From: Gammaproteobacteria bacterium
GTDB lineage: Bacteria > Pseudomonadota > Gammaproteobacteria > Eutrophobiales > Eutrophobiaceae
Length of the DNA stretch: 64,000 nucleotides
Assembly: GCA_026710545.1 (NCBI GenBank)
Contig: JAPOQU010000108.1
Location: forward strand, 8,196 to 72,195
Reading direction: 5' to 3'
Part shown: piece by piece, positions 1,315-60,183 of the stretch
Layout of the letters: each line of letters opens with the position of its first letter
Position numbering within the stretch: the stretch's first letter is position 1
The notes under the pieces: model-generated
Told to the model about the DNA's origin: nothing
What the model saw: only the letters and a program-made list of their open reading frames with translations
Databases searched by the model: none
Translations under genes and position numbers: made by a program

Positions 1315-1359
1315 TTAGCATGGATGTACAATCCTATTCATCCTGTGCACCGGTGTTAA
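1315..1359. repeat. degenerate, internally deleted copy of the CAGGAT inverted-repeat element, overlapping the BON gene 3' end
   Basis: TTAGCATGGATGTACA (1315-1330) matches the left arm at 44487 at 15/16; ATCCTATTCATCCTGTGCACCGGTGTTAA (1331-1359) matches the right arm at 44600-44628 at 23/29. Confidence 0.7.
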
Positions 1360-1981
1360 CATCCTCATCCTGTTCCTCCTCGCTTCTTTTCCTGAGCGAT
1401 TCCCTGTATTCGAACAGTTTTACCACTTTTTGTACGCCGCCGGTACGCCGGGCGATTTCCGTCGCAATAGCGCCTTCCTCCTCGGAAACCAGGCCCATGA
1501 GGAAAGTAACACCGTTCTCGGTGACTACTTTTATATGCAGAGTGCTCAGGTCTTGTTCTGCGATCAGCTTGGTTTTTATCTTGGCGGTAACCACGCCGTC
1601 GGCGCTGCGCGAGAGCAGGGAACTAGGGGCGGCTATAGTGATCTCATCGAATACCCTGGTCACCTTTTCAACGTTCTTTACCAGGTCAATTACTGCCTGA
1701 CGATCTTCTTCGGCCGGCGCTTCCCCAGTGACCAGGACCCAGGTGTTATAACTGGTGACGTTGACATGCACTCTTTTTCTTAATTCTTTCCGGTCCCACA
1801 ACGCCAGGCGGAACTTGTTCTCTATTGCCTCGTCTTCAATTATGGTGCCGGTAGTCCTCCGGTCTGCCACCACAGTCGAGACGGCGGTCGTGGCGCCGGT
1901 TACGGCTACGGGGGCGCAGCCTTGCATCAGCAGCAGGGGCGCAAGGAGGATGACTGACAGGATGTGTGGTTGCATTTTCAT
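1334..1981 (-). CDS. dolP: dual-BON domain lipoprotein (DolP/YraP)
   Basis: Lipobox-like LMQGC; DRRTTG and [14 protein letters not shown] motifs; [10 protein letters not shown] end; position downstream of gmhA. Confidence 0.88.
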
Positions 1982-2571
1982 GTTACTGCTCCTAGTAGTT
2001 TATGGTCGATCAGATCACAAAGAGAATGGATTATCATCAGGTGTACTTCCTGGATCCTGGCCGTCGAATCGGCAGGCACACGCAGCTCGATGTCGGTTTC
2101 CAGCAGCATATCGGCGATCTGCCCTCCTTCCCTGCCGGTCAGGGCTATGACGTGCAGCCGTTTGTCGTGGGCGGCATCGATAGCGTGGATAATATTGTCT
2201 GATTCGCCGCTGGTGCTGAACGCCAGCAACACGTCTTCCGGTTGTCCCAGCGCCCGTACCTGCCGTGAGAAGATATCGGCATACTGGTAATCATTGGCAA
2301 TCGAGGTTAATACGGATGAGTCGGTTGTCAATGCGATGGCGGGCAGTCCGGGCCGCTCCATTTCATACCGGTTGATCATTTCGGAAACGAAATGCTGTGC
2401 ATCTGCGGCAGAACCGCCGTTGCCGCAACTCAGGACTTTATTGCCGTTCAACAGGCAGGCGGTCATCAGTTCGGCGGCTATTGCAATTGAAGGAGCGAGG
2501 CGATTACCTGCGTCTATCTTGATGCGGATACTCTCGGCGAAGTTGTCTTTGACGCGTTGAACAAAATCCAT
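1978..2571 (-). CDS. gmhA: phosphoheptose isomerase (SIS domain, GmhA/DiaA family)
   Basis: [16 protein letters not shown] and RIQEVH motifs; the GmhA-type Glu (FVSEMIN) and His (IIHSLCD) are retained; start reassigned to ATG 2571 (MDFVQRV). Confidence 0.85.
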
Positions 2572-2594
2572 TAGTGGCAACCAGTTACCATTGG

Positions 2595-2963
2595 CTAGAA
2601 TGCGGACTTGATCCACTCGATCTTCATTTCGTTCTCTCTTCTGCCGGTTAACGTGATGACGTCAAAGCGCCAGTCAAAATGGCTCCTCGCGGGTGTTTTC
2701 TGCATAAAGACCTGGCTGGTTCTCCGGATTTTAGTTCTCTTTGAATGATCTATGGTCTCTGCCGGATGTAAAAAAGCCGTATTTTTTCTTGACCTGACTT
2801 CAACGAATATAATGGTATTGTTTTCCTGCATGATCAAGTCAATCTCGCCAAAACGGGAACGAAAGTTACGTTCCAGCAAAGTCATGTCATGTTTTTGCAG
2901 GTAGCGCAGAGCCAGGTCCTCGGCCATCCTGCCGAACCTGGCCCGGTAATTATCAGCCGTCAT
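2595..2963 (-). CDS. yraN: YraN family putative endonuclease (UPF0102)
   Basis: [27 protein letters not shown] and RFDV motifs; start reassigned to ATG 2963 (MTADNY). Confidence 0.9.
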
Positions 2964-57353: not shown

Positions 57354-57394
57354 CAACAAGAGAAATGGCAGTTTTTGAATAGTGCTGGGGGGAG

Positions 57395-60136
57395 CTAATT
57401 TTTACCCACCCGCACCGCGCAGAACTTGAACTCGGGGATCTTGCCGAACGGATCCAGGGCGTCGTTGGTGAGCACGTTTGCGGCTGCTTCGTGGTAGGTG
57501 AACGGCATCATCACCACGCCCTGCTGCATGCCTTCGTCGACGCGGGTGGCTACGTTGAGCCTGCCGCGCCGTGATTCAATGGCCAGCAGGTCGCCCGATT
57601 CCATATCCAGGGAGCGCAGGTCCCCGGGGTTGACCAGGATATACGGCCAGGGTTCGATGGTATTCAATACCCTGGAATGGCGCGTCATGGTGCCGGTATG
57701 CCAGTGTTCCAGTTGTCTTCCCGTCATGAAAATAAAGGGGTAGTCGTCATCGGGCAATTCTGCCGCCTCGATATAATCCGCCGCGATAAAACGCCCCCTG
57801 CCGTTCTCCGTCGGGAAACTGCCGCCCTTGAAAATGACCGGTTCGCCCGGGTCGCCCTCCCGGGTTAACGGATAGGTCAGTGAATCATCCTGTTCCAGGC
57901 GCTGCCAGGTCATGCCCGCCATACTGGGCACGGCCTGCCGGATTTCCTCGAACACCTTCTCCGGTCCCGGATAATCCCAGTCAAGACCGAGACGCCGGGC
58001 CAGTTCCTGGATGATCCACAGGTCCTGGCGCGCATCACCGGGCGGGTTGACGGCCTCTCTGCCCAGTTGCACGCGCCGGTCGGTATTGGTATAGGTGCCG
58101 GTTTTCTCCGGAAACGCCGAAGCCGGCAGGATGATGTCGGCAAACCCGCAGGTTTCGGTGAAGAATATATCCTGGACCACCAGGTGCTGCAGCCTGGTCA
58201 ATGCCTCCCTGGCGTGATTCAGGTTCGGGTCGGACATGGCGGGGTTCTCTCCCATGATGTACATGCCCGTGATTTCCCGTTCATGCACGCCGTGCATGAT
58301 CTCGACCACCGTCTTGCCGGCGTCCGGGTTCAGTTGCATCCCCCAGAGCTGCTCGAACCTGTGTCTCGTTTCCGGGTCCTGCACCGGCTGGTAATCGGGA
58401 TACACCATCGGGATCAGGCCCATGTCGGAAGCCCCCTGCACGTTGTTCTGCCCGCGTAACGGGTGCAGGCCGGTGCCGGGACGGCCAATCTGTCCGGTCA
58501 TCAGCGCCAGCGAGATCAGGCAGCGGGCGTTATCCGTCCCGTGCACGTGCTGGGATATGCCCATGCCCCAGAAAATGATCGCGGTTTTTGCCGTGGCATA
58601 AAGGCGCGCCACCTCCTTTATCTTCTCAGCGGCGATACCGCAGATGGGCGCCACCTGTTCCGGACTGTACTCCTGCACTGTCTCCATGAGTGCGGCGAAG
58701 CCCTCGGTATGCGCATCTATGAACGAGCGGTCGTGCAAGCCCTCGTTGATAATCGTGTGCATCATGCCGTTCAGCAGCAGCACGTCGGTGCCGGGCCGCA
58801 GTTGCAGGAATGCGTGGGCATGCAGGTACATCTCGGAACTGTAAGGTTCGATCACGATCAGCTTGCTGCCGTTTTCGGCCGCATTTTTCATGAACGTGGC
58901 CGCCACCGGATGGTTGTCATTGGGACGGGCGCCTATCACGATAATGACTTCAGCCTGTGTACCGTCTGCCACCTGGTTGGAGACCGCGCCCGAGCCGATG
59001 GTTTCCAGCAGTGCGGCAACCGAGGAGGCATGGCACAGGCGGGTACAGTGATCGACGTTATTGGTGACGAAGGCGGTCCGCACCAGTTTCTGGAACAGGT
59101 AGGCTTCTTCGTTACTGCCTTTGGCGCAGCCGAAACCGGCCAGGGCCTGTGAGCCCTGCGAGTCGCGGATTGAACGCAGGCCGTCCGCTGCGGCCTCCAG
59201 CGCCTCCTCCCAGGTCGCTTCGCGGAAATAACGGTGCAGCGCCCGGGACGGGATAATCTCCGTGGTCTTGGGTGTGCCCGGCTTCCGGATCAGCGGCCTC
59301 GTCAGGCGCCCGGGGTGGTGCACGAAATCGAAGCCGTAACGTCCCTTGACGCACAGGCGGCCCTGGTTGGACGGGCCGTCCCGGCCTTCCACGTATTGTA
59401 TATGGTCGTTCTTTACGTTGAACGTCAACAGGCAACCTACGCCGCAGTAAGGGCAGACGGAATCGACCTGTTTATCCGGTTTCACCAGGCCCACGTTCCG
59501 GGCCGGCATCAGGGCGCCGGTGGGGCACGCCTGTACGCACTCGCCGCAGGCCACGCAGGTGCTCTCTCCCATCAGGTCGTCCATGTCGAATACGATTTCG
59601 GAGTGCTTGCCGCGCCAGGCATAGCCGATGACGTCGTTCACCTGCTCCTCCCGGCAGGCGCGCACGCAACGGGTACACTGGATACAGGCATCCAGGTTGA
59701 CCGCGATGGCAGGGTGCGACAGGTCCGGCGCTGCCTGCTCCCGTCCCTCGAAGCGGGGGGAGAACACGTTCATCTTTGTCGTCCAGTGGTCCAGCTCTGA
59801 ATCCAGGCGGTAGGGCGATGCACCCTGTTGCGGCATATCCGCCAGCAACAGTTCCAGCACCATTTTCTGCGAGTGCAGCGCACGCCCGGTAGTACTGTGG
59901 ACCTTCATCCCTTCTGCCGGTTTGCGGCAGCAGGACGGCGCCAGGGCGCGTTCCCCTTCTATCTCCACCATGCAGACACGGCAGTTGCCGTCTGCGCGAT
60001 AACCGTCCATGTAACAGAGTCGCGGGATCTCCACACCGTGCCGTTCCGCCGCCTGCAGGATGGTCTCTTCCGCAACGGCCTCGATATCACGCCCGTTCAG
60101 GGAAAACCGGGTTGCTGTTTTATCTTGTTCCTGCAT
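57395..60136 (-). CDS. NAD-linked formate dehydrogenase alpha subunit (Mo/W-bisPGD, Cys ligand)
   Basis: N-terminal 2Fe-2S and 4Fe-4S motifs (CRVC, CIQCTRC, CVACGEC, CPYCGVGC); active site RLCHAS; LRGQNNVQG; KIPEFK end. Confidence 0.93.
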   Translation of the reverse strand: MQEQDKTATRFSLNGRDIEAVAEETILQAAERHGVEIPRLCYMDGYRADGNCRVCMVEIEGERALAPSCCRKPAEGMKVHSTTGRALHSQKMVLELLLADMPQQGASPYRLDSELDHWTTKMNVFSPRFEGREQAAPDLSHPAIAVNLDACIQCTRCVRACREEQVNDVIGYAWRGKHSEIVFDMDDLMGESTCVACGECVQACPTGALMPARNVGLVKPDKQVDSVCPYCGVGCLLTFNVKNDHIQYVEGRDGPSNQGRLCVKGRYGFDFVHHPGRLTRPLIRKPGTPKTTEIIPSRALHRYFREATWEEALEAAADGLRSIRDSQGSQALAGFGCAKGSNEEAYLFQKLVRTAFVTNNVDHCTRLCHASSVAALLETIGSGAVSNQVADGTQAEVIIVIGARPNDNHPVAATFMKNAAENGSKLIVIEPYSSEMYLHAHAFLQLRPGTDVLLLNGMMHTIINEGLHDRSFIDAHTEGFAALMETVQEYSPEQVAPICGIAAEKIKEVARLYATAKTAIIFWGMGISQHVHGTDNARCLISLALMTGQIGRPGTGLHPLRGQNNVQGASDMGLIPMVYPDYQPVQDPETRHRFEQLWGMQLNPDAGKTVVEIMHGVHEREITGMYIMGENPAMSDPNLNHAREALTRLQHLVVQDIFFTETCGFADIILPASAFPEKTGTYTNTDRRVQLGREAVNPPGDARQDLWIIQELARRLGLDWDYPGPEKVFEEIRQAVPSMAGMTWQRLEQDDSLTYPLTREGDPGEPVIFKGGSFPTENGRGRFIAADYIEAAELPDDDYPFIFMTGRQLEHWHTGTMTRHSRVLNTIEPWPYILVNPGDLRSLDMESGDLLAIESRRGRLNVATRVDEGMQQGVVMMPFTYHEAAANVLTNDALDPFGKIPEFKFCAVRVGKN

Positions 60137-60154
60137 TTATAAAATTTAAAATAA

Positions 60155-60183
60155 ATCTGCGTTAATCTGCGCCATCTGCGGAT
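60155..60183. repeat. ATCTGCG triad (copy 2) between the FDH subunit genes
   Basis: ATCTGCGTTA ATCTGCGCC ATCTGCGGAT. Confidence 0.9.

Follow-up and report, generated by a model that had tools for sequence, protein, structure and literature searches.

Fourteen short structured repeats occupy gene junctions in a 64,000-nt stretch of a Gammaproteobacteria bacterium genome (assembly GCA_026710545.1, contig JAPOQU010000108.1, positions 8,196 to 72,195; the whole stretch is called the window below). We read them as what is left of three kinds of selfish palindromic elements, in the form of gene-less copies, collapsed copies or single arms, with a probability of about three in four. An element of the first kind would consist of an arm of three 9-10-nt units, a gene for a PDDEXK_3/GxxExxY nuclease and the inverted arm, with three arm families, each linked to its own protein clade. 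The second kind would be made up of a heptamer array, a gene for an Avd-like four-helix-bundle protein and the inverted array, which is the architecture of the intervening sequences (IVSs) of 23S rRNA placed in mRNA junctions. The third would comprise two or three families of repetitive extragenic palindromic (REP) elements, with genes resembling REP-associated tyrosine transposases (RAYTs) elsewhere in the genome. The assembly, G000 among the genomes compared, comprises 4.43 Mb in 129 contigs, of which C108 harbours the window. The repeats had first been noticed in a reading of the sequence alone, referred to here as the original prediction. All 14 coordinates carry the motifs that it gave, next to the genes that it named; its observation is confirmed, and its interpretation is partly supported.

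In sister species, cassettes with a gene for a small PD-(D/E)xK nuclease have the ATCTGCG, CTCTGTG and ACAGGAT triads as their inverted arms. Matches to TIGR04256 are present in 10 of the 23 genomes of the genus, with nine full-length genes in seven of the 22 congeners. All nine are exactly bracketed by inverted arms of the triad families found in the window, and their products belong to PF13366. Arm family follows protein clade: clade A goes with ATCTGCG, clade B with ACAGGAT and clade C with CTCTGTG, and a 60%-identical relative of clade A (locus L026) has ATCTGTG in place of ATCTGCG. The clade A genes run from arm to arm, with their start codon within the left arm and their stop codon within the right one. 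As for G000, its only TIGR04256 match, on contig C61 between ATCTGCG triads, is truncated to profile positions 2-66 of 116. At one junction the decay can be followed in place: G001 has the full gene, G000 a version with an in-frame deletion that lacks the E-x-K part, and G015 a larger deletion.

The association extends to many phyla. Flanking inverted repeats (score of at least 14) were found at 47 of 78 PDDEXK_3 loci, against 5 when flanks were swapped between loci. For 42 of the 47 the best arm period is 9 or 10; examples of the cores are CGCAGAT, CACAGAT, CACGAAT and CGCGAAG. Across 76 sequences, residues D75 and K87 never vary, and E85 almost never. The structural model (predicted local distance difference test, pLDDT, 90.8) has Cas4 SSO0001 as its nearest fold (E-value 1.1e-4, TMq 0.60), followed by lambda exonuclease and, more weakly, Hjc; a search of solved structures by sequence returned no match for the nuclease. 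PDDEXK_3 proteins have the catalytic PD-(D/E)xK residues and a predicted nuclease fold. Relatives of the nuclease are carried by eight plasmid or megaplasmid records; none was found among 50,697 phage records, and none of 19 pattern hits in the viral_contigs set was confirmed. The accessible part of a 2012 survey of the superfamily gives the role of PDDEXK_3 as 'Unknown' (PMC3424549). Among the matches listed in literature searches by motif and by family names, supplements not being covered, none describes the nuclease cassettes and GxxExxY is mentioned only in passing; in that literature the cassettes appear to be undescribed.

The AATTA(C/G/A)G heptamer arrays correspond to the arms of cassettes with a PF05635 gene, which codes for a four-helix-bundle protein of the 23S rRNA intervening-sequence family. 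Three of the 23 genomes of the genus have such a gene, located between inverted AATTACG/AATTAGG arrays in G007 and G015 and between AGTTTTT heptamer arrays in G001. There is no PF05635 match in G000, and its heptamer copies are all gene-less. In the class, PF05635 was found in 52 of 301 genomes, a tally that includes the unpublished and otherwise unused G163. We analysed 20 PF05635 loci from 20 other genomes of the class: flanking inverted repeats scoring at least 14 are present in 14, against 2 controls, and 18 of the 20 have period-7 arms, built of many different heptamers. One of these loci, L153, has GACAGAT units, the same heptamer as in the Coxiella IVS. The latter is described, in the accessible part of the report on it, as a 28-bp stem with tandem GACAGAT heptamers of strain-variable number and a decaying S23p open reading frame (ORF), excised by RNase III (PMC4990558). 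The same part states that the 23S-rRNA-IVS protein has 'no known function' and calls the nature and mobility of IVSs open after 25 years, and the accessible part of a review on diversity-generating retroelements (DGRs) notes a resemblance of the PF05635 protein to Avd (PMC10053308). Among the literature matches listed for PF05635 and S23p, only the Coxiella and DGR papers are relevant. The heptamer part of our observations is a known element in a new setting, that of mRNA junctions.

The third kind is more familiar. The GGGGTCAGAG and GGGGACAGA palindromes are REP elements (families R1 and R2), and the hairpin at 52038 represents a third, REP-like family (R3). R1 has 107 GGGGTCAGAG...CTCTGACCCC pairs, 91 of them intergenic, and the GGGGTCAGAG foldbacks of the genome are short in 43 cases and long in 43. 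R2 has 251 GGGGAC(A/G)GA hairpins, 198 of which are intergenic. Four genes in G000 match PF01797 and pass its threshold, one of IS200 type and three RAYT-like, none of them in the window. The palindrome of site 41475 flanks the RAYT-like gene of contig C89 (218 aa) on both sides, with GGGGTCAGAGCATTTGCTCTGACCCC upstream of the gene and over its 3' end, and two GGGGAC(A/G)GA hairpins, of the R2 type found at 53994, come after the RAYT-like gene of contig C6 (210 aa). In the flanks of the RAYT-like genes we found only GGGG-type palindromes, and no triad or heptamer arms. This REP part is ordinary.

The repeats recur throughout the genome and are enriched at gene junctions, as the original prediction had supposed. 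Arrays were classified by their midpoint relative to our own crude ORF calls, by which 85.6% of the sequence is coding and 14.4% of arrays would be expected to be intergenic, and the same motifs read backwards served as a control for the counts. ATCTGCG arrays are intergenic in 117 of 139 cases, CTCTGTG arrays in 16 of 22 and ATCCTGT arrays in 23 of 25, the control being 0 for all three. The figures are 66 of 75 for the AATTA(C/G/A)G heptamers (control 5), 231 of 282 for GGGGTCAGAG (control 3) and 481 of 631 for GGGGAC(A/G)GA (control 97). The TTCC(C/T)GC-N-GC(A/G)GGAA hairpins of the 52038 type number 48, with 31 intergenic, and show compensating stem variants (CTGC/GCAG, CCGC/GCGG, CGGC/GCCG); only the full hairpin is enriched, the bare 9-mer GTTCCTGCG being intergenic in 15 of 111 cases.

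The original prediction had sorted the repeats into four groups. Several unrelated families are indeed involved, but its '9-10-nt triads' are three separate families (ATCTGCG, CTCTGTG and ACAGGAT; T1 to T3) and its GGGG palindromes two, which gives, with the heptamers and R3, seven families of three kinds. As these kinds have different associated genes, they do not form the single multi-family system that it had proposed. Moreover, 52 of 54 adjacent -/+ ATCTGCG pairs are spaced by 8-221 nt and 24 of 26 adjacent +/- heptamer pairs by 6-96 nt, indicating mostly inverted pairs (foldbacks) rather than single arrays. The ATCTGCG arrays have three units in 115 of 139 cases, two in 23 and five in 1; the 7-nt cores of the triads are strictly conserved, their spacers are free, and conservation ends a few bases beyond the triad. 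Foldback interiors are rich in AT and for the most part unique: 32 of the 47 ATCTGCG interiors that measure at least 40 nt have no match in the genome, and the others form clusters of 6, 3, 2, 2 and 2. Strong RNA hairpins are predicted for six of the seven window elements that were folded (z-scores of -3.7 to -10.4), the element at 4853 giving a weak one (z -1.3), and a hairpin is predicted for three of the four heptamer copies of the window.

We compared 11 junctions in up to 12 relatives, 10 junctions in five relatives and two further regions. Public sequencing runs (X3, X4, X8 and X14) were used as assembled contigs, which show presence and bridging only, and the evidence from contig joints concerns the contig-covered parts of the stretch. 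The RNA runs X19, X20 and X24, which contain a small share of the stretch, were left out. In close relatives and in the public assemblies, a junction may be empty, hold a collapsed copy, a solo arm or a copy with a flipped interior, or be occupied by a different family. The complete 143-nt foldback between the degS-like gene and hisD is present in run X3 but absent from G033 and G016, which are 95-97% identical to G000, as well as from G014, G032 and G015. Exactly these 143 nt are missing from contigs of X8 and X14, which join 44481 to 44625 with a 2-nt ambiguity, and the ends of this element match those of cargo cassettes at 87-97%. The hisG/murA junction harbours a GGGGTCAGAG foldback in four species (with the same arms and other interiors in G001, G032 and G015), heptamer arrays in three (G033, G016 and G005) and nothing in two (G004 and G009); in contigs of X8 and X14 the loop of the foldback is replaced by 3 or 8 letters. 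At one junction of C61 a triad foldback in G000 and a heptamer foldback in G015 sit at the same base. Between atpH and atpA, the foldback is full in G000 and G001, with interiors that differ between the two, G033 and G016 show a solo arm, and G014 has no element; the arm supplies the stop codon of atpH. Finally, the interiors of two triad foldbacks (C61:37946-38137 and C61:39746-39879) are reverse-complemented in G016 (locus L159) relative to G000, G033 and G015, and the surrounding genes keep their orientation. Pairing of cargo with arm, an arm period specific to the cargo, turnover, decay of the cargo in place and overlap with stop codons are direct observations.

A separate observation concerns a small hairpin, CCCTGCTT...GCAGGG, which is inserted into the left ATCTGCG arm, in identical position, at L159 (G016) and L163 (G001), junctions that match C61:37946-38137 and C61:29497-29698 of G000. 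It may represent a further family landing in ATCTGCG arms.

Copies accumulate in spacers that were formerly very short, and the arms extend over stop codons of host genes and provide new ones. A called gene end is found at 25 nt or less from the element end in 96 of 170 cases for ATCTGCG and 63 of 98 for the heptamers, in agreement with the closeness to gene ends reported initially. The spacer minus the element is at most 30 nt for 29 of 85 ATCTGCG and 24 of 49 heptamer elements, although such spacers represent 1.6% of intergenic bases. Divergent spacers are under-used: they account for 25% of intergenic bases but hold 11 of 85 elements. Of the 139 ATCTGCG arrays, 21 contain the stop codon of an ORF of at least 80 aa, as do 30 of the 75 heptamer arrays. 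Because such ORFs read into a triad or heptamer arm, they share C-terminal tails: SADDAD* is found in 13 ORFs of at least 80 aa that end in triad arrays, and ELGITN* or ELGIKN* in several others. The strong enrichment in tight gene junctions may reflect either targeting or the survival of tolerated insertions.

How such elements might operate can be envisaged from their architecture. The tandem units would be binding sites of the cargo protein, and the long hairpin might be excised or processed in the transcript by RNase III, by analogy with the rRNA IVSs; such processing would explain the tolerance of insertion within operons. Spread would need an intact cargo gene, or another enzyme, now lacking in G000. 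The copies of the window are non-autonomous and without a mobilizer at hand, as the original prediction had it, since the TIGR04256 and PF01797 matches all lie on other contigs and PF05635 has none. It had further suggested a search for copies whose arms flank an ORF, and such copies exist: triads flank PDDEXK_3 genes and heptamers PF05635 genes in congeners, and GGGG palindromes flank RAYT-like genes in G000. Its idea of maintenance in trans by enzymes encoded elsewhere suits the REP elements, given the RAYT-like genes on C89 and C6; for the triads and heptamers, which have no intact cargo in the assembly, it is hypothetical.

A broader proposal can be put forward tentatively, at somewhat less than even odds. 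The 23S rRNA IVS might be the most familiar representative of a large class of foldback cassettes, so far undescribed, whose arms would bind the protein encoded in the loop, with 7-nt units for Avd-like proteins and 9-10-nt units for PDDEXK_3. The protein would act both on the arms of its own cassette and, in trans, on copies without a gene, and the elements would colonise transcribed junctions, including those of essential operons, because their hairpin would be removed from the RNA. The triad and heptamer cassettes seem undescribed outside ribosomal RNA genes.

Several points weigh against considering the 14 sites as relics of selfish elements. The assembly has no intact cargo gene of either kind, although its 129 contigs may hide repeats, and present-day movement in G000 is consequently unexplained. 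Of the 47 ATCTGCG interiors, 32 are unique, the middle part of the 143-nt element has no counterpart in any cargo gene, and an origin as deletion remnants is demonstrated for few copies only. No clear target duplication, which the original prediction had suggested looking for along with empty sites, was found: the sole clean empty site gives the 2-nt ambiguity (TT), and the other junctions are replacements or too diverged. Partner arms resemble each other no more than arms of different elements do (0.823 against 0.831; 4590 of 5000 permutations reach the observed value), and there is no arm-to-arm covariation and no sign of selection for pairing at variable positions. Some copies, those at 60155 and 53994, occur at the same junction in many species and may be old and fixed. 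Our gene calls are crude and starts were taken from the longest ORF, which makes the distances to starts rough. For the REP elements, the RAYT-like genes match NF047646 (RAYT) with E-values of 1.8e-18, 3.9e-20 and 1.8e-17 and with 66.8, 72.2 and 63.6 bits, below the 80-bit cut-off. Lastly, we found no published demonstration of binding or cleavage by either cargo protein, and the RNase III step is drawn by analogy only.

Among other explanations, the one that survives best, while still unlikely, is that the cassettes spread without transposition, by a homing-like process or by allelic replacement via the flanking genes, with new copies landing in or replacing older palindromes. The atpA/atpG junction fits this: the filled alleles (G000, G033 and G015) and the empty ones (G016, G014 and G001) differ in the whole spacer and the start codon, and their distribution departs from overall relatedness. 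The secF/secD stretch is likewise a replacement and not a clean insertion, families supplant each other at identical positions, and target duplications were not found. However, identity is not raised around the atpA/atpG element in G015, as a recombination tract would have it, and the 143-nt element is a clean insertion or deletion with its 2-nt ambiguity only. Homing alone also leaves unexplained how about 90 ATCTGCG elements came to lie at unrelated junctions in one genome.

It is distinctly less probable that all families are REP/REPIN populations moved by RAYT-like transposases, with the nuclease and four-helix-bundle genes as passengers. G000 does have three RAYT-like genes, every family is hairpin-forming, intergenic and present in many copies, and one architecture shared by two unrelated cargo families would fit a mover other than the cargo. 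Nevertheless, the RAYT-like genes are flanked by GGGG-type palindromes only, an isolated triad or heptamer arm, in contrast to a REP, does not form a palindrome by itself, and the arm sequence follows the cargo clade just as the arm period follows the cargo class.

We regard as very improbable that the arrays are conserved protein-binding sites under selection, regulatory or chromosome-organising, for instance for a regulator that sits on three sites one helical turn apart. The 9-10-nt period, the strict 7-nt cores and the free spacers would suit such sites, as would partner arms that do not covary, expected if only the cores matter; the sites might also act in the manner of DnaA boxes, which the complement of the triad end, TTATCCGCA, presumably resembles. 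The 60155 triad, common to six species with one to three units, and the 53994 hairpin also keep their junctions in many species. Conserved sites would nonetheless hardly vary from 0 to 119 copies between congeners or be missing from all 12 other families sampled, nor would they be absent in relatives with 95-97% identity, give way to different families at the same junctions in different species or flank a specific cargo gene across phyla.

Least credible of all is that the elements are ordinary miniature inverted-repeat transposable elements (MITEs), deletion derivatives of insertion sequences mobilised by a DDE transposase of the genome. Their terminal inverted repeats, small size and many copies would fit, as would an ATCTGCG pair on C89 that encloses an ISAs1-type transposase gene. 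However, their interiors are mostly unique, target duplications were not observed, and what the full-length copies of relatives contain is a nuclease or four-helix-bundle gene rather than a transposase. The ISAs1-type sequence is a secondary insertion, since it has its own ends and 10-nt duplication and a copy on C1 lacks triads. We dropped the classical MITE interpretation on the grounds of the unique interiors and of this secondary insertion. The insertion sequence in question spans C89:21056-22501 inside an ATCTGCG foldback, and its C1 copy has 87% identity.

The 14 sites of the window, viewed as relics of selfish palindromic elements, are listed in Table 1. Their flanking genes include yajC, secD, secF, pdxB, murA, hisG, argJ, a Nudix gene, pgeF and clpB, as well as the gene for the alpha subunit of formate dehydrogenase (FDH) and that of its NuoF-like partner. 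The stacking of two families at 4853-5039, reported in the original prediction, is real.

Table 1. Repeat elements at gene junctions of the window (window coordinates), with their occurrence at the same junctions in relatives (G numbers) and in contigs of public runs (X numbers). RND, resistance-nodulation-division.
Coordinates	Strand	Element	Junction	Anatomy	Occurrence elsewhere
1315..1348		Collapsed ACAGGAT-type (T3) foldback	sspA / dolP-like gene	Ends TTAGCATGGATGTACA (left) and ATCCTATTCATCCTGTGC (right); arm type of cargo-bearing cassettes L022, L024, L031	In G033, longer in G016, absent from G014; REP-type elements in G001, G015
4853..4990		Heptamer (AATTACG/AATTAGG) foldback		Left arm 4853-4884, interior ~80 nt, degenerate right arm ~4962-4990	Present in G033, scar in G016, G014, absent from G001, G015; 4853-4988 whole has 74-79% matches elsewhere in G033, G015
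4991..5039		Collapsed CTCTGTG-type (T2) foldback, stacked on the heptamer element 4853..4990		Degenerate left arm 4991-5008, right arm 5013-5039; arm type of cargo-bearing L021, L027	Present in G033, G016, G014; absent from G001, G015
35386..35410		Collapsed heptamer foldback filling the spacer	argJ/Nudix	AATTACGAATT-TCT-AATTCGTAATT; z -4.5	Full heptamer foldback (interior ~70 nt) in G033, G015; collapsed in G016 as in G000; AGTTTTT-heptamer element in G014
41475..41512		REP hairpin, family R1	clpB/pgeF	ATATTCGGGGTCAGAGCATTTGCTCTGACCCCGAATAT; z -10.4	Present in G016, G033, G014; absent from G015, G001; in an X8 contig, a single letter separates 41458 from 41513
44482..44624		Complete gene-less ACAGGAT-type (T3) foldback, 143 nt	degS-like/hisD	Arms TTAACATGGATGTACAGGATATACAGGAT and inverse; z -9.3	See text
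46557..46640		Long R1 foldback	hisG/murA	Arms ATATTTGGGGTCAGAGTAAAAATAC; z -8.2	See text
48943..48971	+	Solo ATCTGCG (T1) arm		Complement gives the last codons and stop of an RND transporter ORF	In G033, G014, G005; other families in G001, G032
51473..51540		Heptamer foldback	Divergent RND gene/orf137 spacer	Left arm 51473-51499, right arm ~51525-51536; z -3.7	Present in G033, G016, G005; none in G014, G001, G032, G004, G009, G010, G006
52036..52061		REP-like hairpin, family R3 ('dRS3-like' in the original prediction)		TTCCTGCACACGCAGGAA; family of 48 genome-wide	One to several copies in G033, G016, G014; none in G004, G009, G010
53994..54018		REP hairpin, family R2	pdxB/secF	GGGGACAGAATTAAATTCTGTCCCC; z -4.9	Present in G033, G016, G014; degenerate in G032, G015, G001; absent from G004, G009
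54967..54991		REP hairpin, family R2	secF/secD	Within a ~93-nt stretch unique to this strain	Stretch in 0/12 relatives, whose spacers are 33-85 nt including anchors; X4, X8, X14 contigs carry 25 letters instead of 54931-55048
56916..56941	+	Solo heptamer array AATTAAG AATTAAG AATTAGG	secD/yajC	Motif at coordinate	Other unit variants in G033, G016, G015; degenerate in G014; absent from G001, G032, G004, G009, G010, G013, G006
60155..60183	+	Solo ATCTGCG (T1) arm	FDH alpha/NuoF-like partner	Motif at coordinate	Same place in G033, G016, G015, G005; two units in G014; one unit in G004, G009; none in G001, G032, G010, G013, G006

Other features of the window were noted in passing. A degenerate period-7 run at 38785-38812 (ACTGACA ACTAAAA TCTGGAA) can be likened to the AGTTTTT-heptamer arm family, and the same junction in G014 has a clearer array together with a GGGGACAGA hairpin. 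Between the gene ending at 34098 and argJ, positions 34118-34150 hold a small palindrome, CCATGGATG...ATCTCCATGG, followed by TTAA, which resembles the termini of the ACAGGAT family. The 164-nt spacer between purN and pdxB (52667-52830) is the remainder of a stretch of about 1.6 kb found at the same place in G033, G016 and G014; in G015 this spacer measures only 82 nt including anchors. A search of the window with Rfam at gathering scores recognised none of the repeats. Its sole match, with 343.5 bits, was the RNase P RNA (bacterial class A) at 10898-11272 on the + strand, which occupies the long spacer preceding the dcw cluster. At 44003-44030, within the degS-like protease gene, many unrelated contigs of all four public runs pile up and break, with a depth of up to about 2,400, which probably reflects a conserved protease motif common to other organisms.

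The association with hairpin cassettes provides a testable context for two large protein families without an assigned role, as the sequence and period of the arms track the protein that they flank. The nature and mobility of IVSs could be studied on many polymorphic copies in ordinary genes, instead of the few copies in rRNA genes. For genome annotation, these elements account for odd C-terminal tails, altered start regions and long spacers in the atp, sec and fdh operons.

The various families can be set against known repeats. The dRS3/Correia-type repeats of Neisseria were the comparison first made for the hairpin at 52038. R3 is similarly an intergenic hairpin of the ATTCC...GGAAT type with many copies, but its stem and loop sequences differ, and it behaves as a REP family with compensating stem variants. 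Eukaryotic foldback elements have inverted ends built of short tandem repeats, and the triad and heptamer elements share with MITEs and foldback transposons the inverted arms of tandem short units, the variable middle and the non-autonomous copies. Unlike these, they have no transposase-bearing parent and most of their interiors are unique.

REP/REPIN systems combine short palindromes with RAYT genes. The GGGGTCAGAG and GGGGACAGA families conform to this description, with hundreds of intergenic palindromes and a Y1-type gene flanked by the same palindromes. The triads and heptamers have a REP-like lifestyle, in that they form hairpins, occupy tight junctions and have few gene-bearing and many gene-less copies. 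They differ from REPs in that their arms consist of tandem direct units and that the associated gene lies inside the element, not beside it.

The closest relatives of the heptamer cassettes are the 23S rRNA IVSs, which occupy helix 25 or 45, whereas all four heptamer copies of the window lie between protein-coding genes. The heptamer itself, AATTA(C/G/A)G, also distinguishes them, as do the dozens of gene-less, collapsed and solo-arm copies per genome and the arms that overlap host stop codons. A PF05635 ORF in the loop, as in IVSs, is present in G007 and G015 and missing from G000. In other respects the likeness to the Coxiella IVS, as described in the accessible part of the report on it, is close: both have a long stem of terminal inverted repeats, tandem heptamers in the arm that vary in number between strains, and a decaying ORF of the PF05635 family in the loop, and both behave as selfish DNA (PMC4990558).

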